Below are positions 3,177 to 61,756 of a stretch of 64,000 nt of DNA, piece by piece. This stretch comes from Alphaproteobacteria bacterium (GTDB taxonomy: Bacteria; Pseudomonadota; Gammaproteobacteria; Burkholderiales; Burkholderiaceae_C), in NCBI GenBank assembly GCA_030054175.1, contig JASGCM010000014.1, positions 30,154 through 94,153 on the forward strand, read 5' to 3'. Both the position numbers and the translations under genes were made by a program. The notes under the pieces were generated by a model that saw only the letters and a list, made by a program, of their open reading frames with translations, ran no database searches and was not told the origin of the DNA. The number at the start of each line of letters is the position of its first letter. Within the stretch, counting starts at the first letter, position 1.

Positions 3177-5226
3177 CCGTAGCGGTCGGTTCCGCCGCGG
3201 TCAGATCCATGTCGACGCTGATCGGTCCGGCAGCGGTCAGATCGGCTTCACTTTCTTCAATGGACTCTGTGCTGAGGGTCTGATCGTCGCCCAGCAACTC
3301 CAAGACCGTGGCCGAAATATCCAAGCCGATGTCATCGATCTCGCCCAATTGCAAGCGCACCCGTTGCCCCCGCTGTAAGCCCGCTGCGGTGACGCTCAAC
3401 ACCAGGGGCAGGGTATCTGCACGCACCACCGCCGGTTGGTCGGGCCAGGCTTTGATGACGGTGGCATCCAGCGTACCGATGTCATGCTGGCGCAGGTAAC
3501 GCAGCGTCCAGAACCGTTCCATCTGGGATTGGTGGCCGTTATAGGCTGAATAGGCTGTCTCAAAAGACGAGATGATGGAAAACAGTTCAGCGCTTTTGGG
3601 TTGGAATGGCGCGGCCAGCGCAGCAGTGGCACCATGACGCGCGCAAGCAATGATTTGCCACTGGTTGACCAAGTCGGTGTAACGCCGCAATGGAGACGTG
3701 CTCCAGGCATAACTGGGCACGCCGATGCCCGCATGCGGCAAGGCCTTGGTGCCCATGCGCACCTTGACGCCCGGCGCCAAGCTGGCTTGGCTGCGGTAGA
3801 TGGCGGGCACACCCAGGGTGCTCATCCACTGCCCCCAAGTGCTGTTGGCCAAAATCATGGCCTCGGCGACGATCAGGTCAAGGGGTGCGCCACGGCGCCG
3901 CACGCCGATCTCGACTCGCTCTTCGCCAGTGGGAGCAGCGGTGCTTTTATCGATCAGGCGGAAGGTGTAGTCGGGGCGAGAAAAATTTTCGGGTTTGCCT
4001 CGCACCTGTTCGCGGGCTTGTTTCAGATGCGTGGTCAAACGCCACAGCCATGCCATGGCGCAACGCGGCATGGCGGGCTCGGGGCCGTTGCCGGCCCAAG
4101 GGGTGTCTGGGTTTTGCAGCCACTCGGGGGTGACGCCGGTATCGAGTTGATCGTGGCGCAGGTTGGCCCCGATGGTCACGCGTTCGAGCCGGGTTTGGTG
4201 GTCGAGGATCTCAAAACCTTGTTCACGCATGCGCACGTACAAAGAAACCGCCGGGCAGGCTTGCCCCTCGGCCAGGGTGTAGCCTTGGACCACATCATCG
4301 GGCAGCATGGTGATTTTGTGGCCTGGCATATAGACGGTGGACAGGCGTTGCCGACCCAGGGTGTCGATGGCATCTCCAGGCGTCACCGCCAAGCCCGGGG
4401 CGGCAATGTGGATGCCCAGGGTCACAGTACCTGTGCCCAAACCTTGTACCGATAGAGCGTCATCGATCTCGGTGGTTTCCGAGTCGTCGATGGAGTAGGC
4501 AGTGGCTTCAGACAGGGGAAGATCCATACCTACCTGGGGCGGAATGATGGCCGGAAAGTCAGTGCCCTTGGGGAAGTTATCGAACAAAAAACGTTGCCAA
4601 TGGAATTCATAGGCCGAACCGATGGCCCCGGCGCGTTGCAGCAAATCGAGCGGAGCGCGCTGGCTGGCGCGCGCGGCCTGCACCACGGACTTGTATTCGG
4701 CGGAGTTTTTGTCCGGCTTGAAAAGTACCTTGAAAATCAGCGATCGGATCTCATCGGGGCAGGTGCCTTGGATCAATTGCTCGGTCCAACGGTCGATCTT
4801 TAATTGGACCTGTTTTTTCTTTTCTATGGCCGCCAAAGCCAATCGCAGCACCTCGGCGTCGGCACGCCGAAAACGCCCTTTGCCGGAGCGGCGAAAGTAA
4901 TGCGGCGCTTCATGCAAGCGCAACAGCATGGCCGCGGTTTGGGTCAGGGTGCAACTGTTGCCGTAATACTCGCGCGCCAGGTCGGCAAAGCCAAACTCTT
5001 CTTCGGAAGCGAATTCCCATGCCAGGTCCAAGTCGATTTGACCACTTTCTTGCTGCGCACCGGCCAACAGTTGAGCTGGCGTCGGTTGCTCGAAGCGCAG
5101 CACGATGTGCGGCAGTTTGGCCTTGACGCGTTTGCCTGACTCGAGCTCGATTTGAGCCGATGATTCGGCTTCTGACAGGATACGACCGCCCAGGAATTTC
5201 CCGGCTTCTTCAAAAATGGCATGCAT
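3160..5226 (-). CDS. RNB-domain exoribonuclease (RNase II/R family)
   Basis: 688-aa ORF with RNB catalytic aspartate cluster IDDSETTEIDDALSV. Confidence 0.8.
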   Translation of the reverse strand: MHAIFEEAGKFLGGRILSEAESSAQIELESGKRVKAKLPHIVLRFEQPTPAQLLAGAQQESGQIDLDLAWEFASEEEFGFADLAREYYGNSCTLTQTAAMLLRLHEAPHYFRRSGKGRFRRADAEVLRLALAAIEKKKQVQLKIDRWTEQLIQGTCPDEIRSLIFKVLFKPDKNSAEYKSVVQAARASQRAPLDLLQRAGAIGSAYEFHWQRFLFDNFPKGTDFPAIIPPQVGMDLPLSEATAYSIDDSETTEIDDALSVQGLGTGTVTLGIHIAAPGLAVTPGDAIDTLGRQRLSTVYMPGHKITMLPDDVVQGYTLAEGQACPAVSLYVRMREQGFEILDHQTRLERVTIGANLRHDQLDTGVTPEWLQNPDTPWAGNGPEPAMPRCAMAWLWRLTTHLKQAREQVRGKPENFSRPDYTFRLIDKSTAAPTGEERVEIGVRRRGAPLDLIVAEAMILANSTWGQWMSTLGVPAIYRSQASLAPGVKVRMGTKALPHAGIGVPSYAWSTSPLRRYTDLVNQWQIIACARHGATAALAAPFQPKSAELFSIISSFETAYSAYNGHQSQMERFWTLRYLRQHDIGTLDATVIKAWPDQPAVVRADTLPLVLSVTAAGLQRGQRVRLQLGEIDDIGLDISATVLELLGDDQTLSTESIEESEADLTAAGPISVDMDLTAAEPTATDDDAA

Positions 5227-37275: not shown

Positions 37276-37367
37276 GGAGAGATGGCAGAGTGGTCGAATG
37301 CGCCGGACTCGAAATCCGGTATACGTTTTTTGACGTATCGAGGGTTCGAATCCCTCTCTCTCCGCCA
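37276..37367 (+). tRNA. tRNA-Ser (anticodon CGA)
   Basis: Acceptor GGAGAGA/TCTCTCC. Anticodon stem CCGGA/TCCGG with loop CTCGAAA. Long variable arm ATACGT...ACGTAT. T-arm GAGGG-TTCGAAT-CCCTC. Encoded G-CCA end. Confidence 0.95.
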
Positions 37368-37412
37368 GAACAAGTCCTGCTAACTCGCTCAGTTGGGTTG
37401 TCAGGCGCTCAG

Positions 37413-37438
37413 AGCCCCGCACCACGCGGGGCTTTTTG
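37413..37438 (+). terminator. rho-independent terminator of tRNA-Ser
   Basis: AGCCCCGC-ACCAC-GCGGGGCT followed by TTTTT. Confidence 0.8.
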
Positions 37439-37606
37439 CTATGGGCTCCTGACTGACCCCATAGCCACCCACCCCCGAAATCCGTCTCAAACCCCGATTC
37501 GTCTCAGAACCTCCTGACTTTTTGGCCGTGGTACGGCGGAAAGGGGTTAGCGACAAAGCTGGGTTTTTCGAGCCGTACCGATTGAAGTGATCGCTACAAA
37601 AAGCCT

Positions 37607-39430
37607 TTATTCCTCAAAGCCGTGATTCTTGAACTTGAGTTGGTTGCAGTTTTCCAGAACCGCTCGCTGAGTTGACTCATCAAACCCCGTAGCGGCTTCA
37701 GCCTGAATCTCCAAGCTGACCTTGACTTTCACGCCAGGCTTTGATGTGAAGAGCATGAGCACCTCCTCAGCCACTTCAGAGAACTGGAGCTTTGCTTTGA
37801 CCGGGTCGAGCTCGACCTGGCCGAAGAACACAGTCTTCTTTGCGGCCGGGGTCTTGGGTGGGGTGTCACCGCCAGCGCCGCCACTGCCACTCCCTCCTGT
37901 TTCGCCGCCTCCGCCTACTCCAGCACCCGCGCCAGCTCCTCCGCGGGCGCCGGCGCCTTGACCGCCAGCATCGCCTTTAGCCTTGACATCCCGCTCTGCC
38001 TGCTCTTTAGCCAGCAGGTCTGCGAATTTTGCGGCCGCGGGCGGCTCGACTAGCAAGAGAGCGTCGTCAAAGATCACCGTCGTTTGTTCGCCGAAATGGA
38101 AGCCTTGGTAGCGCCCTTCCTCTTCGCCATATGCGATGCCGAAAAAGTCGCGTGAGGAGACGCCTGCCCCGATGGTATTGCGCATAACGAGGTCGTCTTT
38201 GAGTCGGGGAAGATATAGGTAGCAGCAGGTCTTCTGCCATGCCTCGACCGCAGACACCGCAGGCTGATCCTCCTTCCAAAACCACGCTTGCAGCATCTTT
38301 GCCAGGTGGATCGGGGCCCATTCGGTGATGAGCAACTCGTGTTCGCGCAGAACCTTCTCGATTTCTTCCGTGCGATTGACCGCGGCTGGGTTGATCTGGA
38401 AGTGGTCCCATTGCAGATCGCCGATTCCTTTGCTCGGCTTGGCCTCTTGCAGCGGGGCTAGCAGCCACTTGTAGGTCTCGCGCATCATGCGGCCTAAGGC
38501 TTCGGAAGCCTGATCGTGGCTGTGACCCGCGAGCTTGCTCTGATGCACGTCGAGGTTGAGGCGTCCTTCCTTGACGTCGTCAACGATGGACTTCCAGGCG
38601 AGAACCGATGTGACTTGGTCCTTCAAGCGGGACATCGAGTCGGCATCGGGTGCCAGAAAGATCAAGCGGTTTTGCTTCTGCCGCGGCTGGTCGCCGCGCG
38701 TCTTCAAGATCGTCGTGGCCGCATCGATCGCGGCGGATTGGCTCGCGCGTGAGAAAGTCGCCTCGGGAGCTAGCACCACCAAACGGAGCTGCCAATCGTC
38801 CGGCACGTCGGCAGAGCCTGTGAAAACATGTATAAGCACGATGCAGGGAGAGGCAGAAGCCAAGATGTCTGCCAGCGCGCTCTTGCCAGGGGCCGTGCCA
38901 TCGGCGTCCGCTTCCTTGATCTTTGCAAACGCATCGGCTCCGCCAAGCTGCCAGGCGAGCTCGCCCCAGATCGTCTTGATCGTGGTCTTGCCATAGACGC
39001 GTGGCTTGCTGGCCATATCGAGCAGCTCGACGCCATCAAGCACCGCGACCTTCGCCTTGGGAAGCTCAGAGATGCTAGCGTCGTCTAGGATCTTGCTGAC
39101 TCCTTGCAGCTTCGAGGAATGCTTCTCACCCTTGGCCAGGTGGTAGACCGACAGCAGCGTGTGGGTCTTGCCGCCCCCGAACGCGGTCTGCAACTGCACC
39201 ACCGGGTCTCCGCCCCTACCCGCGATACGCTTCACGACGGAGTCGAGCAGAAGGCGCATACCCTCGGTGATGAAGGTCCGCTGGAAGAAGAGCTCCGCGT
39301 CCTGGTATTCAGGCGTAGCTATGCCTTGATGTACCTTCGAGATGTCGGCTGCAAACTCAGCCTGTTGGAACGTGCCCTTGAGAACGTCATCGTGTGGAAC
39401 GGCGATCTCGCGCCAGGGTTTCAATGCCAT
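37607..39430 (-). CDS. DUF499-type P-loop ATPase, apparently internally deleted
   Basis: N-terminus [17 protein letters not shown]...[17 protein letters not shown] and C-terminal half (RLVVLAPE...NRLIFLAPD...[16 protein letters not shown]) both match my memory of DUF499. The protein is only 607 aa and has no hhhhDE Walker B after PCIVLI. Confidence 0.75.
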
Positions 39431-39442
39431 ATTCTCTTCCCC

Positions 39443-39979
39443 TCAAATATCGAGTTTGGTCTGCGAACCGAAGTGCCCCTTTTCATGGGAAGCCGCTTCG
39501 ATGCCAGTCCAGGATGTGATCAGTTCGTTATAGGCGCGGGCGTCATCTGCCCAGCCCTTGCGTTCGCAGAGCGTATAGAGCCGATACGCCAGACTTCGAA
39601 TGGGCTCGGCCCGCTGAGGCATGCCCGCAAGTAGCAGGCCTGCGGCTGTCTCGCCCTGGGACCTGAGCTCTCGGATCAATTGATGAAGCGCTTCCCAGAC
39701 CGGCGTATTGTTGTCCTGCTCGGGAGCCCAGTCCTGTGGATACTCGGCAGGTTTCAACAAGCGAACCTTGCCCGCTCCCGCCTCGATAACTTCGGCATCA
39801 CGGACGTGATCAACAGAAGTGCCTTTCGCCCGAGCAAGAACATCAGCCTTGCCAAAGTCTCCTGCTGACCAGCCTTGCTCGTCGAACCATCCAAGGCAGA
39901 ACTGTGTGTCCGCGTCGAACTCGTCCGCTCCTTCTGTCAGCATGCGATTGATGATCGTTAGAGCTGTGTGTACGCTCAA
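39443..39979 (-). pseudogene. methyltransferase fragment C (C-terminal ~178 aa)
   Basis: (L)[31 protein letters not shown]...[27 protein letters not shown], the typical C-terminal region of DUF1156 methylases. No ATG (the track start is TTG). Confidence 0.75.
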
Positions 39980-39980
39980 G

Positions 39981-40648
39981 CTCGTTTCAACTGACCCGCC
40001 TTATTACGACAACATCGGATATGCGGATCTATCCGATTTTTTCTATGTGTGGATGCGACGAGCTATCAAGGACATTTTTCCTGAGCTTTTCTCCACCGTG
40101 GCCGTTCCAAAGATGGAAGAGCTAGTGGCTACGCCCTATCGTCATGGAAACAAAGAGAAGGCTGAGGAGTTTTTTCTTGATGGTATGACGGAGGCTATGC
40201 ATCGATTGTCGACGTATGCCCATCCTGCGTTTCCGACCACAATTTACTATGCATTCAAGCAATCTGAGACGACCGATGTCGGCACTGGAAATACCGGCTG
40301 GGAGACATTCCTCGAGGCAGTTATCAGAGCGGGGTTCGCTATAACTGGAACTTGGCCGATGCGAAGTGAGCAGGAATTTCGAATGGTCGGTATGGGAACG
40401 AATGCTTTGGCTTCCAGCATTGTTCTTGTGTGTCGTTCCAGGGCGCCAGAAGCGGGCTCTATTTCGCGGCGAGATTTTCTTCGAGAGCTTAAAGATGAGC
40501 TGAAGGAAGCTGTTGAGGCAATGATCGGTGGATCTGAGGGTGTGTCGCCCGTAGCCCCTGTCGATCTAGCTCAGGCGGTTATTGGCCCTGGCATGGCGAT
40601 ATTTTCAAAATATTCAGCCGTGATCGAAGCCGATGGCAGTCCCATGTC
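39981..40648 (+). pseudogene. methyltransferase fragment B (catalytic middle ~223 aa), inverted
   Basis: [27 protein letters not shown]...[25 protein letters not shown]...[30 protein letters not shown], read on the plus strand. Confidence 0.8.
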
Positions 40649-40651
40649 CTT

Positions 40652-42300
40652 AGCAATTTCGCTTTGAGATGCATTAGCCTGCGAAGCAAACCCTTGGCCA
40701 CCGCTCAAAGGCAACTTTTCGATGCAGTCCGCAATGTATTGCGCTGCGGGTAAGTAGCCTCCAACGGTATCTACCAGAATGTTCGCCTCAGCAAAATCCC
40801 ATGCCATAGGCAAAGATTGCTTACCAAAGAGATGCATTACCTTCTGATTAGTCGAGGACCAACCACACAGAGAATTTACAAAGTCAGTGCATCTATCAAT
40901 TGCAAATGCCAGATAAATTGAAACTGCCTCAGCGTATGCCGAAGCTCCAACACCACCATTAGCCAGCTTGCGATCATCATCGGGAAGCTGCGCATTTCTA
41001 GCGTCTTTCTCCACTTTGGATCTAACTTCGGCAACCAAATCAGACAGCGTACCCAAGGCCAGCAATTGTCTGTCAGTGAATAAATCGCCGAATTTCGACA
41101 AGCCGTAGTTAAGGGTCCAAAAGTTTCTTGGATCATTAGGCAAAGATGTGTTTGGTTTCCATGTCGGATTCGCAGCCTTTGCTAACTTCTCCATCTCGTC
41201 GGTCGGTGAAACATAGACCCTGGCTCTCTTGCCTTCAGCGACCACCGCCATAAGACGCATGCCGATCCGACCTGCCATGCCTTCGCTCTTAATGTAGGCC
41301 GGGTCGATTGGGACGCCTGACAGCAAACACTTAAACTTTGCTCCACGAGCCAGCTTTGTCCCAGCCTTGGCTTCTGCCGGCGGCTTTCCATACCTAACTT
41401 CAAAGCGAATTTGATCGCCGCTCACTATAGGCTCAACATATACCTCCTTGCCTGTTTTGTTAGCCAAAACAAACGAGGAAGCCAACGGCACGTCTGCATG
41501 TGAATACGCGGGATTTGGACTCTTTACTGTCCTAGCCCACAACCATGCGATAACTTTCGATTTAACTCCACCCTGGTCTTTCGGAAGTTGAATTTCTGGA
41601 TAGAAATTTCCGATGCGCGAGAATGCTTCGTCTCGCATCCACTCTGCATATCGCCTGACATCTTCCGCAATTCCCTCTGGGCCAGACCATTGCTCAGGAA
41701 GCTTAGATTGCTTTCTTGAGTTTGGAACTGGGCCAACAGGCGGGAGATTAGAAAATTTCGGCGGGATTTCAATCATCGCCTTATTGATCATTACTGCGAC
41801 TGGATTAAGGTCAGCCGCGTGAGCCTCGAGGCCAAGACGCTGAGCCTCTAGCGGCAGCGCGCCCCCGCCTGAAAATGGATCGTGAAATCCGGGCAAAGAA
41901 TTAGGATTGAATAGCCTGGCCGCATCCGGGTGGTGTTTATTTAGCTCGCAAGTTTCCCGCCAACTTTTCAAAATTTCCTCTCGAGCTTCATCCAGTAAGG
42001 CTTTGTTGTTTGTGTTCTCCCACTTTACTAATTCGCTAATCAATCGAAACAGTCTTTGACGTTCAACTCTTGCTCGTTCCTTATTCACTCCCCGCCCCAA
42101 ATTCCGTTCATAGCCGGGGTCATTTATCATTTGAGCGAATATCACCGCTCTTGCCGCGGCCAAAGGTCGGCGTGCCCACCATAGATGAATACCTCTGGGG
42201 TGCGCCCCTATGCCAGGCATCTTTTCGTAAGCGCACGCTACATTAATGTCATCGAGGGGAAGGGCTACTTCGATTAGCTTCTTCGGCGTCTTGATGGTAG

Positions 42301-42304
<4 letters not shown>
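40652..42304 (-). pseudogene. methyltransferase fragment A (N-terminal ~551 aa, DUF1156 plus motif I)
   Basis: [21 protein letters not shown]...GIHLWWARRPLAAARA (DUF1156) and HDPFSGGGALPLEAQRLG (SAM motif I). Homology ends at ...[13 protein letters not shown]. The ATG overlaps the helicase stop (ATGA). Confidence 0.8.
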
Positions 42305-45818
<3,514 letters not shown>

Positions 45819-45822
<4 letters not shown>

Positions 45823-46061
45823 TGCCCTGTCCCTTGATCTTGTTCTGATTGTTTTTTGATCCAGGCGTCAATGTCGGCTTTTGAAAAACGCCAGCTTCCG
45901 CCAACTTTGAAAGACGGGATCTTCTTGGCCCCTGCTAAGCGGTAGATGGTTCGCTCGGTTACCTTGAGGTAGTCGGCAACTTCTCCGATGGTCATGATGG
46001 CGTTGTCAGCTGGGCTGGATGGCATGGTCTTAGCCAGGTGGGCGGTAGAAAACGTCAGCAT
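45819..46061 (-). CDS. excisionase/MerR-type HTH DNA-binding protein (start may be 46025 or 45995)
   Basis: [21 protein letters not shown]...GSWRF pattern (HTH_17-like). The stop overlaps the helicase ATG (ATGA). Confidence 0.75.
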
Positions 46062-46071
46062 AGTGCAAAAT

Positions 46072-46098
46072 TTTCAATCTGCGGTTGAAAGATTGAAA
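46072..46098. promoter_or_regulatory. operator-like inverted repeat of AGATTGAAA
   Basis: TTTCAATCT (46072-46080), 9-nt spacer, AGATTGAAA (46090-46098). Lies in the divergent region between the HTH gene and the small ORF. The spacer adds a tandem GGTTGAAA. Confidence 0.45.
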
Positions 46099-46200
46099 TA
46101 TTGTGCTGGAACCCTGGCTCACTGGATGAGCAAGACGCTAGGATCTAATCTGAAGGTCTGCTGGTGATGCATCCAGCGGACGACATGAAAGGGGCTGGCT

Positions 46201-46491
46201 ATGTCGTTCTGGCAAATCTTGGGTAGGTTCGCGTTCTCGGATCAAGGGGAGACGATTCAGAAGGTCTCCGACACGACCAGCGTGTCATCCGATGGCACTA
46301 CCTACACGCGTATGGGCTCTACGACCGTTGGGTCGGATGGTTCAGTGTTCACGCAGACCGGCAGTTTCAGCAGCGACGGAAGCGCGCGCATGGGGAGTAC
46401 TGCGACCGGCCTAGGCGCGGTTTTCAACAACCCTCGAGATGACTTTGGGGCAGGGTCAAGCAGATCCCGAGATGGATTTGATGATTTTTAA
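46201..46491 (+). CDS. small Ser/Gly/Thr-rich repeat protein (96 aa), unknown function
   Basis: SD-like AAAGGGG upstream. Periodic SSDGTTYTRMGS / GSDGSVFTQTGS / SSDGSARMGS. Acidic tail DDFGAGSSRSRDGFDDF. Confidence 0.5.
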   Translation: MSFWQILGRFAFSDQGETIQKVSDTTSVSSDGTTYTRMGSTTVGSDGSVFTQTGSFSSDGSARMGSTATGLGAVFNNPRDDFGAGSSRSRDGFDDF

Positions 46492-46505
46492 GAAGGTCCG
46501 CAGCG

Positions 46506-47033
46506 GTGCGCATTGAGATCGTCGTTGGGAACATCGTTCGCCAGCCGGACGTGGACGCGCTCGTGAACTCCGCAAACGCGAACCTTCGCTTCGGATCAGG
46601 TGTCGCTGGCGCCATCCACACAGCCGCAGGGCCGGAGTTAGAGCAGTATTGCCGCCGCTACTCTCCTATTGCACTTGGCGATGCTGTCGTTACCCCTGGG
46701 TTCCAACTTCCAAACTCGTACGTCATTCATGCGAGGGCGGCTAGCTACATAAACGATGATCATCCGGAGAAGTACCTGGACCTTGCAATCGCCCAAGCGC
46801 TGAGAGTTGCAAAGGATGCAGGTATCAAGTCGATGGCGATGCCCGCTGTCGGTACGGGCGTCTTCAAATTTCCGCCCGAACTAGCCGCTGAGATCATTCT
46901 GAAGGCGTTGCTTAGCCGGGTCACCGAGTTTCCAGACATTACTCTGGTGCGCATCTGCGTTGGTGATGCGCAGATGAAGGCGGTGTTTCAGGCTGCTTTG
47001 GACATGGCCACAGTGGGTTCTGCCCGAAACTGA
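46506..47033 (+). CDS. macrodomain (ADP-ribose binding / deacylase-type) protein
   Basis: GTG start 8 nt after AAGAAGG. ALVNSANANLRFGSGVAGAIH and AMPAVGTGVFKFP macro motifs. 175 aa. Confidence 0.85.
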   Translation: MRIEIVVGNIVRQPDVDALVNSANANLRFGSGVAGAIHTAAGPELEQYCRRYSPIALGDAVVTPGFQLPNSYVIHARAASYINDDHPEKYLDLAIAQALRVAKDAGIKSMAMPAVGTGVFKFPPELAAEIILKALLSRVTEFPDITLVRICVGDAQMKAVFQAALDMATVGSARN

Positions 47034-47422
47034 GCCAAGAATTTTTGTTCTTGCTGTCGCCAATCCATTGGAAATGGCTCCAGCAGATCCCTCATCGTCA
47101 ACCAGGCAGGATGCGACCCATCAAGGATCGCCTGCACCACGAGCGGTGACAGAAACGCCAGCCGCAATATTCTGCTGATGTAGGAGGGGTTGATCTTCTC
47201 GGCTGCAGCCAAGTCCTCGATCGATGTATATGTGCCGTCGTAGAGGATTTGCTGCCAACGGAACCCTCGGGCGATGACCTTGATCATCGTGTTGTCGATG
47301 GTGGCCTCGCGACGTACCACTCCTCGCGATCCATCAGGCATAACGATCACTGTTTTGCCACCTCGGGGACGGAAGGTCATAGGGATGTGCGTGGTTTCCG
47401 GTATTTGTGTTGTCGGTGTCAT
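46988..47422 (-). CDS. recombinase-operon accessory protein (144 aa)
   Basis: ATGA-coupled to the recombinase stop. Motif EKINPSYISRILRLAFLSPLVVQAILDG resembles partners I recall downstream of this recombinase type. Confidence 0.6.
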   Translation of the reverse strand: MTPTTQIPETTHIPMTFRPRGGKTVIVMPDGSRGVVRREATIDNTMIKVIARGFRWQQILYDGTYTSIEDLAAAEKINPSYISRILRLAFLSPLVVQAILDGSHPAWLTMRDLLEPFPMDWRQQEQKFLAQFRAEPTVAMSKAA

Positions 47423-48765
47423 GCGGCCTCCTTGCAGGGCTGCTGCATGATCGAGTCACGCAGGAACTTGGGCATTCCTTTGGTCTTCCAAGTGATGCTG
47501 ATACCGTCTTTGCGAACGGTAATCCTCTCAATCAACGCATGCGCGATCCGCACCTGTTCTGCCGGGAAGAGGTGGTCCCAAACCTGGTCAATCGATTGGA
47601 GGTGCTTGATAGCGTCTGTTTCGCTGATGTCCGGGCGTGCAATTGACACCTCATGTACCGCTTGCGACAGGATTTCTGGCGAGCGTAGGGCCCCGCGTAT
47701 TTGTTGCACTACAACGCCCTCGATTTCACCGGCAGGAACGCGACACACCTCGCATGCATCCTTGCCGAGTTTGATCGCATCAGTATTGATGTAGTAGAGG
47801 TACCGTTTGGGACCCTTGCTGGTCCAGCCTGGCGTGAACGCACGCCCCTCAGGTGAAAACAGCAGCCCACGAAGCAGCGTTGGGGCTTTTGTGTCGCGAG
47901 ACTCGGATCCGCCCTTGACGTGCTTGTCGCCAGCCTTAAGGTTTTCCTGGACCGTGTCCCAGAGTTCTTGCTCGATGATCGGCTCATGCTCGCCGGGGAA
48001 CTGCTTCCCCTTGTATGCGGCCATGCCGATGTAGACCGTGTTCTTGAATACCTTGTAGACATACCCTTTGGTGATCAACTTCCCGCTGCGCTCGATCCCT
48101 TTTGAGGTGGTCCAGGACTTAGATGTGACACCGCGTGCGCGCAGGTCTCTTACAAGTGTTGCCATCGATGGCGTTACGGCAAAACGCCTGAACATTTCCT
48201 GGACGATCTGCGCTTCCGCAGGGTTGGGGATCAACTTTCTTTCTGCGACGTCGTAGCCAAGCGGTGGCATGCCTCCCATCCAGATGCCGCGCTGGCGTGA
48301 GGCGGCGATCTTGTCGCGTACCCGCTCGCCGGCGAGTTCGCGCTCGAACTGGGCGAAGGACAACAGGATGTTCAGCGTCAGCCGCCCCATCGAGGTCGTC
48401 GTGTTGAACGCCTGCGTCACCGACACGAAGGTGACCTTGTGCTCGTCAAAGAGTTCGACCAGTTTGGCGAAGTCGGCAAGCGAGCGCGACAGCCGGTCGA
48501 TCTTGTAGACCACGATGATGTCAACCATGCCATTGCGGACATCATCCAGCAGCTTCTGAAGTCCAGGTCGCTGCATATTGCCGCCGGAGAAGCCGCCGTC
48601 GTCGTAGCGTTCGCGGGCCATCATCCAGCCTTCAGACTTCTGGCTGGCGATGAAGTTTTCGCAGGCGTCTCGCTGGGCGTCCAGCGAGTTGAAGTTTTGT
48701 TCAAGCCCTTCTTCGGTGGACTTGCGCGTGTAGATGGCGCAGATCAGGCGACGCTCAGCCGTCAT
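47419..48765 (-). CDS. large serine recombinase
   Basis: Resolvase catalytic domain CAIYTRKSTEEGL...IIVVYKIDRLSRS, followed by a recombinase domain. 448 aa. Confidence 0.9.
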   Translation of the reverse strand: MTAERRLICAIYTRKSTEEGLEQNFNSLDAQRDACENFIASQKSEGWMMARERYDDGGFSGGNMQRPGLQKLLDDVRNGMVDIIVVYKIDRLSRSLADFAKLVELFDEHKVTFVSVTQAFNTTTSMGRLTLNILLSFAQFERELAGERVRDKIAASRQRGIWMGGMPPLGYDVAERKLIPNPAEAQIVQEMFRRFAVTPSMATLVRDLRARGVTSKSWTTSKGIERSGKLITKGYVYKVFKNTVYIGMAAYKGKQFPGEHEPIIEQELWDTVQENLKAGDKHVKGGSESRDTKAPTLLRGLLFSPEGRAFTPGWTSKGPKRYLYYINTDAIKLGKDACEVCRVPAGEIEGVVVQQIRGALRSPEILSQAVHEVSIARPDISETDAIKHLQSIDQVWDHLFPAEQVRIAHALIERITVRKDGISITWKTKGMPKFLRDSIMQQPCKEAA

Positions 48766-49208
48766 GCTGCGCTCCTTGCCGAGCCGAGGCCGAAGAAGGC
48801 CCAGCCGTTGCGGTTGGTGCCGGTGATGGCACGGGCAATGCTGGACAGCGACTTGTATGGCCGGCCGTTGTAGGCGAAGTGGTCAACGCAGACCAACACC
48901 TCACAGGATGTGCCTTGCCACTCCCGGATCAGGCGAGTGCCGGCGATTGGTCGGTTATCCAGGCGGCGGCGCCGGACATCTTGTTTTCCGCCATCGAGTT
49001 GCTCGCCGAGTTGTGCAAGCCGCTTGGCGGTTTCGCGCTTGAGGCCGCCGTAGGCCAATTCCTGAATCCGGTAAGCCAGGCGGGTTTCAAGGAAGCGCCT
49101 GTTGAACGGTGGTGGCTCCTGGTTGAAGAGGTCCCGCCACATCTGCTTGAGATCGGCGGTGGTGATGGTCTTGAGGGCGGCCACTCGGGCCACAACGGTT
49201 TCAGTCAC
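48762..49208 (-). CDS. DUF2924-like protein
   Basis: GTG start. LKQMWRDLFNQEPPPFNRRFLETRLAYRIQELAYGGL pattern. ATGA-coupled to the recombinase start. Confidence 0.7.
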   Translation of the reverse strand: MTETVVARVAALKTITTADLKQMWRDLFNQEPPPFNRRFLETRLAYRIQELAYGGLKRETAKRLAQLGEQLDGGKQDVRRRRLDNRPIAGTRLIREWQGTSCEVLVCVDHFAYNGRPYKSLSSIARAITGTNRNGWAFFGLGSARSAA

Positions 49209-60196: not shown

Positions 60197-60710
60197 AAAA
60201 CCGGTCACACAACCGCTGGAGCACGGCAGCGTCGTTCGCCTGGCCGGTGGTCGGCTTGCTGAGTGGAATAGCCTTTCCGAAGAGGGCACGAGCTACCGCA
60301 CGGAGCACTTCCGCTGCATCGACTCCCTTGGCATCTTGCTGCGCAATGGCTCGATCACTCCGCAAATGCACGATGCGGGTCAGGACTTCAACCGAACCTT
60401 TGTCTTTGCCCAGATGGACCCAGCAGGCGCTCCTCCGCTGACCCGCATTCCGGGTGGGCAGTGGAAGGACAGCATGACCGAGCGGGTGGTGTGGGCGCGC
60501 AAACGCATGCATGAGGCACTCGACGCAGTGGGAGGGATCAGCAGTCCAGGCGGCTGCGCTGTCTGGCATGTGGCCGGCTTGGGTCGCAGTGTCAAAGAGT
60601 GGTCCGCTTTGGAGGGATGGAATGGTCGAACGCTCAATCAATACGAGGCAAAAGGCATCCTGGTCGGCGCGCTGGCAGTGCTCGCAGTTCACTACGGATA
60701 TTCACGCTGA
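60189..60710 (+). CDS. hypothetical phage protein
   Basis: Start ATG 60189 overlaps the RuvC-like stop. No family recognised with confidence. Confidence 0.45.
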   Translation: MAKKPVTQPLEHGSVVRLAGGRLAEWNSLSEEGTSYRTEHFRCIDSLGILLRNGSITPQMHDAGQDFNRTFVFAQMDPAGAPPLTRIPGGQWKDSMTERVVWARKRMHEALDAVGGISSPGGCAVWHVAGLGRSVKEWSALEGWNGRTLNQYEAKGILVGALAVLAVHYGYSR

Positions 60711-60764
60711 AAGTGCTTGACCGATATATATCGATGAGATACGATTCAGCTAATCACTCAAATC

Positions 60765-60801
60765 ACGCCCGCCCAGTTCATCTCGGTGGGCGTTTTGTTT
60801 T
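60765..60801 (+). terminator. hairpin plus T-run
   Basis: ACGCCCGCC...GGTGGGCGT followed by TTTTGTTTT. Confidence 0.6.
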
Positions 60802-60810
60802 CTGCCCTTC

Positions 60811-60852
60811 AAACCCGCCCCATGCACCCAAGTGCTGCGAGGCGGGTTTTTC
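60811..60852 (+). terminator. second hairpin plus short T-run, 14 nt before the ParB-methylase ATG
   Basis: AAACCCGCC (60811-60819) / GGCGGGTTT (60841-60849), 21-nt loop. Confidence 0.5.
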
Positions 60853-60865
60853 ATTTCAGGTCCTC

Positions 60866-61756
60866 ATGCAGCCCATCAAACTCGAATACCGCGCAGTCGA
60901 TTCGTTGATTCCTTATGCGCGCAATGCCAAGCAGCATTCCGACGCACAGGTGGCTCAGATCGCCGCGAGCATTCGTGAATTCGGCTGGGGAGCACCGATC
61001 CTGATTGACGGATCCAACAATGTCATTGCGGGCCATGGGCGCCTGCTGGCTGCTCGAAAGCTCAGTCTCGCAGAGGTGCCCGTTGTACCCATGGAGCACC
61101 TGACTGATACCCAGCGCCGCGCCTTGATCCTTGCCGACAACAAGATCGGTGAGAACGCTTCTTGGGAAGACGAACTGCTGGGCATCGAGTTGTCCGAGCT
61201 GAAGGATGCGGGCTTTGATCTGGGTCTGACTGGCTTTTCCACCGAGGAGTGGGAGGCGTTGATTGCAGGCGAAGAGCAGAGCCAAGAAGGCTTGACGGAT
61301 GAGGATGCCGTACCTGAGGTCGCAGAAAACCCGATCTCCAAACCCGGTGACATCTGGGTGCTTGGCGAGCACAAGCTCATTTGCGGCGATGCGACCAAGG
61401 CCGATGACTATCAGGCCTTGCTCGGCGAGGAGTTGGTGGACATGACCTTCACCGACCCGCCCTACAACGTGAACTACGCGAACACGGCCAAAGACAAGAT
61501 GCGTGGCAAGAACCGCCCCATCATGAACGACAACCTGGGCGAAGGGTTCGGAAGCTTCTTGTTCGATGCCTGCGACAACATCCTGACCCGTACCAAGGGC
61601 GCGGTCTATATCGCCATGTCCTCCAGCGAGTTGGATACCCTCCAAGCCGCCTTCAGGGCTGCCGGTGGGAAGTGGTCCACCTTCATCATCTGGGCCAAAA
61701 ACACCTTCACACTCGGACGGGCCGACTATCAGCGCCAGTACGAACCCATCCTCTAA
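60866..61756 (+). pseudogene. ParB-like nuclease domain / DNA methyltransferase fusion, 3'-truncated
   Basis: VIAGHGRLLAARKL (ParB-like) and motif IV MTFTDPPYNVNY. Ends at ...DYQRQYEPIL-stop, before any SAM-binding FxGxG motif. Confidence 0.8.

Follow-up and report, generated by a model that had tools for sequence, protein, structure and literature searches.

The window, the whole 64,000-nucleotide stretch of DNA analyzed here, carries an inversion of 670 bp inside hmaB, the methylase gene of an Hma locus. This inversion was very probably a recent, illegitimate event that has become fixed and has pseudogenized hmaB in a decaying, prophage-borne Hma cargo, and a regulatory device is very improbable. 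A preliminary description of the same DNA had left three explanations side by side, namely an isolated illegitimate inversion that inactivated the methylase, attB x attP-type recombination by a large serine recombinase, and an assembly error; the evidence presented below favors the first of them.

hmaB is split by a conservative 670-bp inversion

Both the open reading frame (ORF) listing and direct reading of the region from 39400 to 40800 gave three methylase-like reading frames whose strands alternate, and turning the middle piece around produced a stop-free ORF of 953 codons (2,859 nt). In a search of 5.8 billion proteins, this restored ORF was covered to 100% by DUF1156 proteins that numbered in the thousands and were approximately 950 aa long, the best homologue, P0001, being 91% identical and also 953 aa long. 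Fragments A (residues 1 to 554), B (555 to 777), and C (778 to 953) each gave a gap-free alignment with the identically numbered residues of P0001, at identities of 89%, 95%, and 91%, respectively. The preliminary description had read the three fragments as one DUF1156 methylase lying on alternating strands and had proposed an alignment to orthologues as a check of the junctions; the homologues confirm that A, B, and C are parts of one protein. Because they cover the restored ORF from end to end, the collinear arrangement is, on comparison of sequences, the ancestral one and the window carries the inversion, with chance excluded.

The breakpoints were set by blastn against L003, an intact related gene from a Logan contig. 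Window positions 43398 to 40645 aligned with L003 positions 3 to 2756, positions 40646 to 39977 with 3424 to 2755 in reverse, and positions 39978 to 39336 with 3423 to 4064, giving a 2-nt overlap at each end of the reversed block. The block was reversed in the comparison with a second relative, L002, as well. It thus spans positions 39977 to 40646 (670 bp), with breakpoints at 39976/39977 and 40646/40647. The inversion is conservative and reciprocal, as no base was gained or lost. With CA at its start and TG at its end, the block leaves a 2-bp ambiguity in the breakpoints, and this dinucleotide is the sole sequence common to both sites. The features of the interrupted gene are as follows.

40647..42304, minus strand: hmaB fragment A, codons 1 to 554, with the DUF1156 domain and AdoMet motif I; annotated as MDI9331682.1
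39977..40646, plus strand: inverted segment B of hmaB, codons 555 to 777, with motif IV DPPY and the C-terminal half of the methylase fold; on the strand opposite the rest of the gene
39443..39976, minus strand: hmaB fragment C, codons 778 to 953, the C-terminal region
39976/39977, left junction: CA at 39977..39978, one copy of the only shared breakpoint sequence
40646/40647, right junction: TG at 40645..40646, the inverted partner of the CA microhomology
Ancestral breakpoint sites around the CA core: ...GCTAAGGA-CA-AGCTCGTT... and ...ACGCT-CA-TGGGACTG...

The inversion had therefore been recognized correctly, but its ends, placed at 39980 and 40648 within a supposedly shared AAG/CTT motif, were off by a few bases according to the L003 alignment, and the sequence actually shared is CA (39977 to 39978) and TG (40645 to 40646). 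The difference shows in the protein. Re-inversion of 39981 to 40648, from which the junction peptides had been derived, is in frame but yields the wrong peptides in comparison with ten aligned homologues: relative to all ten, the A-B junction is two residues short (QSEIA--KLVSTD versus QSNISKDKLVSTD) and the B-C junction has two extra residues (SPMSLSVHTA versus SPM--SVHTA). Exact re-inversion of 39977 to 40646 restores the A-B peptide of the homologues and gives DGSPMSVHTA at the B-C junction.

At present, the reading frame of fragment A extends into antisense B, giving an ORF of 577 aa (40571 to 42304). The flip parted AdoMet motif I (in A) from catalytic motif IV, DPPY (in B), and from the C-terminal region (in C), so that a full-length methylase cannot be produced. 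Whereas Hma as defined in PADLOC includes hmaB as a single intact gene of about 950 aa, the window copy lies in three pieces.

The locus is a degraded Hma operon that has also lost part of hmaC

Hma was proposed as a candidate defense system by Payne et al. (2021, PMC8565338). In the window, hmaA, hmaB, and hmaC are contiguous on the minus strand from 37607 to 45822, in the same gene order as in L002, an intact three-gene Hma relative with products of 1173, 954, and 967 aa. The two genes that flank hmaB are the following.

42301..45822, minus strand: hmaA, SNF2 helicase with a C-terminal NOV_C/DUF3883 nuclease domain; full length at 1173 aa and the system's only intact gene
37607..39430, minus strand: hmaC, DUF499 ATPase of 607 aa with an in-frame deletion of about 350 codons (about 1,050 bp)

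HmaA scored 2047 bits against the PADLOC HmaA profile, covering positions 2 to 1171 of 1176; it contains the Pfam domains SNF2-rel_dom, Helicase_C, and NOV_C and aligned without gaps to the HmaA of L002, with 90% identity over 1171 aa. P0002, a close homologue of the restored HmaB, scored 1571 bits on the PADLOC HmaB profile. Judged by these assignments, the system is Hma (helicase-methylase-ATPase), and hmaB is its DUF1156 methylase gene. The window locus and PADLOC Hma agree in gene content, gene order, and the location of all three genes on one strand, with very strong profile matches. They differ in that the window copy is degraded: its hmaB is split by the 670-bp inversion, its hmaC lacks 350 codons, and the whole is cargo of a prophage, located at the end nearest the integrase.

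The deletion in hmaC was delineated by blastp against the 967-aa HmaC of L002. Residues 1 to 200 of the window protein corresponded to residues 1 to 200 of the homologue (81% identity), and residues 200 to 607 corresponded to 550 to 967. The missing part, residues 201 to 550 of the homologue, begins within the Walker B strand (...PCIVLI/HVFT versus ...PCIILMDE...), so the protein retains Walker A but not Walker B (...ILMDE). At the DNA level, the junction lies at approximately 38831 to 38833 (CTT AT/A CAT) and shows about 2 bp of junction homology. Consistently, positions from about 200 to 547 of the PADLOC HmaC profile are missing and the match restarts at 547, and the protein falls short of the roughly 950 to 1000 aa of that definition.

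Two further observations concern hmaC. The Gly/Ala-rich low-complexity linker of HmaC (window 37830 to 38100) varies in length among near-identical copies and gave no DNA-level alignment to homologues. In addition, L020, a contig from another study (ENA ERZ3756518 NODE_51038), contains only the 3'-terminal 1 kb or so of the same hmaC by the tRNA-Ser flank. It is 98.7% identical to window positions 37389 to 38546, has a 15-bp indel in the Gly/Ala-rich linker, and continues from window position 38546 into unrelated DNA with genes for two small proteins that may be membrane proteins. As read from this alignment, L020 is an independent, different truncation of the same hmaC cargo.

The base composition of hmaB also departs from that of its neighbors. 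GC3, compared at window 39443 to 42304, L002 10001 to 12865, and L003 1097 to 3958, was 0.47 to 0.55 for hmaB versus 0.71 to 0.78 for hmaA and hmaC, with the same pattern in the window, L002, and L003, and GC rose only in the last 100 or so codons of hmaB. The low GC3 suggests that hmaB may have had a different evolutionary history or constraint from those of its operon partners. A composition break at the breakpoint was considered and rejected: the GC rise starts about 50 codons past the B-C junction, and the low GC3 is present in the intact L002 and L003 genes too, so it is unrelated to the inversion.

Three assemblies contain the inversion in a single orientation

The window derives from a 96,002-bp contig of a short-read metagenome-assembled genome (MAG), in the annotation of which (proteins MDI93316xx) both the A fragment (577 aa) and HmaC (607 aa) appear as proteins. 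Misjoins are possible in such a source, and an assembly or library artifact masking collinear DNA accordingly had to be weighed. Two Logan assemblies bear on this point. A 24,071-bp contig from SRR23378605 covers window positions 37467 to 61537, and a 5,126-bp contig from SRR23378604 covers 37467 to 42570 and ends in TruSeq adapter sequence; both are 100% identical to the window over the two hmaB junctions and the hmaC deletion, and neither branches at the hmaB junctions. These are different Illumina runs from one study, which may sample one clonal population, and they were assembled by a different pipeline, so that three assemblies agree base for base at both junctions. Furthermore, a misjoin in a de Bruijn graph needs repeats of k-mer length, of which the junctions have none, and chimeric reads would not yield two exactly reciprocal junctions at full support. 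An artifact is thus highly improbable, and the assembly error considered in the preliminary description is essentially excluded.

Only the inverted orientation occurs in the MAG and the two Logan assemblies, an observation made at the assembly level, so that a collinear minority subpopulation may exist beside it. A 177-aa peptide spanning the restored A-B junction retrieved no collinear allele from the protein database, a weak negative since that search returned short proteins only. The sole protein 100% identical to it was P0163, a 238-aa ORF of the inverted state that spans both junctions, while all collinear matches were at most 68% identical. The inversion would appear to be fixed in the sampled population, as one of several lesions in a decaying element.

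Recurrence was assessed with a codon-degenerate 54-nt pattern for the left junction (the reverse complement of xVHTAL joined to the segment B peptide). The pattern matched once in the window, which served as the positive control, and no match was expected by chance. It was found in none of 241 million JGI metagenome records and in none of 185,579 GTDB species-representative genomes; the JGI data hold many HmaB genes. An exact 25-nt junction search of genome and metagenome contig collections likewise returned nothing, the MAG itself being evidently absent from both collections.

The neighboring recombinase belongs to a prophage with exchangeable cargo

A large serine recombinase gene had been noted at 47419 to 48765, and its Pfam domains bear this out. 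The gene lies in the following context.

46988..49208, minus strand: integrase module, comprising a DUF2924 protein (48762 to 49208), the large serine recombinase (47419 to 48765), and a 144-aa "small subunit" (46988 to 47422)
45819..46061, minus strand: HTH_17 (AlpA/excisionase-like) gene, overlapping the hmaA start; a conserved gene upstream of the swappable cargo slot, with 84% DNA identity to sister elements
37276..37367, plus strand: tRNA-Ser(CGA), adjoining the cargo end of the element

The recombinase gene is complete, lies 7 kb from the inversion, and encodes 448 aa with Resolvase, Recombinase, and zinc-ribbon domains. The protein is 49% identical to Gp3 of the Acidithiobacillus phage AcaML1, a "site specific recombinase large subunit," and AcaML1 Gp4 to Gp2 have the same three-gene layout as the window module, at the end of the phage genome. 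The 144-aa "small subunit" matches a PHROG "recombinase" family, and the 90%-identity protein cluster of the recombinase has 86 members. To its right lie a repressor gene, replication genes, a partial terminase gene, and a portal gene; given these neighbors, we identify the recombinase as a prophage integrase.

Sister elements (L008, L009, L011, and others) are 92 to 97% identical to the window at the DNA level over the integrase and replication modules, with about 92% over the recombinase module. In them, the conserved HTH_17 gene is followed by a Type I restriction-modification (R-M) system (HsdM/S/R) in the place taken by hmaABC in the window. Hma is therefore swappable cargo, and the recombinase is not dedicated to it. 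Moreover, no such recombinase was found near intact Hma loci such as L002.

The sisters also contain a 5.3-kb block between a macro-domain gene and HTH_17 (L008 12260 to 17841), where the window has only 375 bp (45859 to 46506). This block encodes 194-aa, 576-aa, and 94-aa proteins, a 541-aa SNF2 helicase, and a DUF3293 protein. The slot by HTH_17 looks like a cargo or defense hotspot in this phage family. The macro-domain protein gene (window 46506 to 47033) has weak similarity to the DarG antitoxin (E = 2e-4) and is conserved in all sister elements; it is convergent with the gene for the 144-aa "small subunit" and overlaps the 3' end of the latter by 46 bp.

At the other end of the cargo, the short-read contigs of both runs stop at about 37366, the 3' end of tRNA-Ser, and resume at 37467. 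The 100-bp gap between these positions contains a terminator-like hairpin (37413 to 37437) and a perfect palindrome with 8-bp arms, GCTATGGG-N12-CCCATAGC (37438 to 37465), and a 9-bp direct repeat, CTCCTGACT, occurs at 37447 and 37512. The interval from 37366 to 37467 may be an element boundary or an att region. A search for an empty site or att through relatives of the host flank genes located neither: the clusters were all singletons, with no relative of at least 90% identity, and the only extra contig stopped at the tRNA-Ser 3' end.

The prophage itself appears to be damaged as well. An ORF at 60599 to 61756, with a ParB-like domain and a DNA methyltransferase, matches only residues 7 to 299 of the 428-aa AcaML1 Gp25 and stops at 61754 to 61756. 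From 61758 on, the sequence matches residues 322 to 543 of the Marinobacter phage AS1 large terminase (561 aa), that is, its C-terminal nuclease half. Neither a small terminase nor the ATPase half of a large terminase is present in the prophage in the window (MAG contig). This methylase-terminase fusion is seen in the MAG contig only, as the Logan contig, with its end at 61537, stops about 200 bp before the fusion, and the other portal-protein contig is too short. The prophage is thus apparently defective, having lost these parts of its terminase through a deletion that fused the methylase and terminase genes.

The junctions lack the features of recombination sites

The preliminary description had found no long inverted repeat at the breakpoints, and this was borne out: a general repeat search detected none at either hmaB junction. 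Alignment of the left junction (±40 nt) with the reverse complement of the right one gave a local score of 6, compared to a shuffle mean of 7.7, with 98% of shuffles scoring at least as high. In register, 22 of 80 positions (27%) were identical, and dyad symmetry around the CA core was 5/20 and 4/20 in the two ancestral sites; both values are at chance level. Comparison of the ancestral breakpoint sites with the element's noncoding stretches, as possible att locations, revealed similarity only at chance level. By our calculation, microhomology of at least 2 bp is expected in approximately 16% of random junctions; the shared CA core is therefore not significant. CA is nonetheless present in both ancestral sites in inverted orientation, which provides the identical central dinucleotide of att recombination.

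These results bear on a role for a serine recombinase. In large serine recombinase attP x attB systems, exemplified by AcaML1 and the Wolbachia phage WO integrase, a conservative inversion with a 2-bp overlap is formally the product of such enzymes. The neighboring gene is a true member of the class and is accompanied, as in the AcaML1 integrase module, by DUF2924 and "small subunit" partners. In contrast to those systems, the hmaB breakpoints are without att-like architecture, and the window enzyme serves the prophage, not hmaB. Integrases of this class normally recombine attP with attB only.

A one-off, off-target recombination at pseudo-sites, made by the prophage's or another genomic serine recombinase and not amounting to a switch, is conceivable but improbable. 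Under this account, two cryptic sites in hmaB with the CA core in inverted orientation would have been cut with a 2-nt stagger and exchanged, resulting in a conservative inversion, a course of events that we likewise consider unlikely. The exactly reciprocal inversion, the 2-bp core in inverted orientation, which is just what a serine recombinase needs, and the complete recombinase gene with its accessory genes 7 kb away all speak for it, as does the fact that balanced homology-independent inversions are otherwise uncommon (PMC3411829). Yet a core of this length is commonplace among random junctions, half-sites with dyad symmetry are missing around CA, the two sites resemble each other in register no more than chance allows, and neither resembles the element's noncoding stretches; in addition, a pseudo-attP and a pseudo-attB would both be needed 670 bp apart in one gene. 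That the prophage's own large serine recombinase flipped the segment at two cryptic CA-core sites in hmaB is quite improbable. If this were true, it would be natural off-target activity of an integrase rewiring or silencing the defense cargo of its own element, and a flip made by a recombinase could be reversed given a directionality factor.

The inversion was also compared with known switches. Intragenic invertons and phase-variable methylase switches, the latter including the invertible Type I hsdS loci, resemble the hmaB inversion in that an intragenic segment is inverted, with the product changed or abolished; here the target is the DNA methylase of a defense system. The defining mark of intragenic invertons is a pair of flanking inverted repeats (Chanin et al., bioRxiv 10.1101/2023.03.11.532203) recognized by a dedicated invertase, and both orientations coexist. 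The hmaB inversion, in contrast, has no repeats, one orientation (at the assembly level), no dedicated invertase, and no recurrence.

The preliminary description had raised the possibility that the modification arm of Hma is turned ON and OFF by a programmed, reversible switch, with the recombinase flipping the DPPY segment both ways. The circumstantial case for it is that the flip is clean and in frame on reversal, the restored ORF is otherwise undamaged, and a recombinase is near. However, the inverted repeats by which known invertons are defined (bioRxiv 10.1101/2023.03.11.532203) are absent, a single orientation occurs in three assemblies, with no collinear allele in the protein database (the weak negative described above), and neither of two large collections yielded another copy of the junction. 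Sister elements without hma have kept the recombinase. Furthermore, since hmaC has been irreversibly deleted, flipping hmaB back to an ON state would not rebuild an intact Hma system. A programmed switch thus fails most of the testable defining features of invertons and is very unlikely; with a core at chance level, no dyad symmetry, a recombinase that serves as prophage integrase, and a deleted hmaC, the reading of a recombinase-driven switch had no positive support.

Origin and consequences of the inversion

Returning to the one-off illegitimate inversion, we propose that a single homology-independent, reciprocal, and conservative event flipped 670 bp within hmaB, with only the 2-bp CA/TG overlap between the sites. 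The event was probably recent, because the restored 2,859-nt ORF contains no further stop or frameshift. In terms of enzymology, the event may have been a strand exchange of the topoisomerase/gyrase type or a double template switch.

One finding runs counter to a simple accident: a balanced inversion with a 2-bp overlap is unlike the usual products of spontaneous recombination in bacteria. All spontaneous inversions verified in Salmonella involved inverted repeats no shorter than 12 bp (Sun et al. 2012, PMC3411829). The hmaB inversion resembles the rearrangements of that study in being gene disrupting and independent of RecA-type homology, and the hmaC deletion described here also shows only about 2 bp of homology. 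It differs in that their inversions had repeats of 12 bp or more, against 2 bp in hmaB, which places it at the extreme "illegitimate" end. Because a balanced exchange at 2 bp is unusual for spontaneous inversions, a conservative exchange catalyzed by an enzyme retains its appeal, and one by a topoisomerase or gyrase or by a serine recombinase is conceivable. The perfectly reciprocal outcome hints at a conservative, topoisomerase-like exchange over short-homology recombination.

The inversion is an ordinary event within a known system and matters mostly as a caution. A clean inversion near a recombinase that can be restored in frame resembles a switch, whereas here it is a pseudogenizing lesion in a disintegrating defense locus. 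Gene callers give three unrelated ORFs at the inverted hmaB.

Loss of both HmaB and HmaC would be tolerated if, as we infer, HmaA can act alone. HmaA by itself protects Escherichia coli against T4 through its nuclease domain and is nontoxic without HmaB, and a role of HmaB like that of an R-M methylase could not be demonstrated; among hmaA loci, about 15% are without hmaB and about 19% are without hmaC (Liu et al. 2024, PMC11232893). The inverted hmaB is one documented path along which Hma decays to hmaA alone, a course that fits the published HmaA-only defense and the minority of hmaA loci without hmaB or hmaC (PMC11232893).
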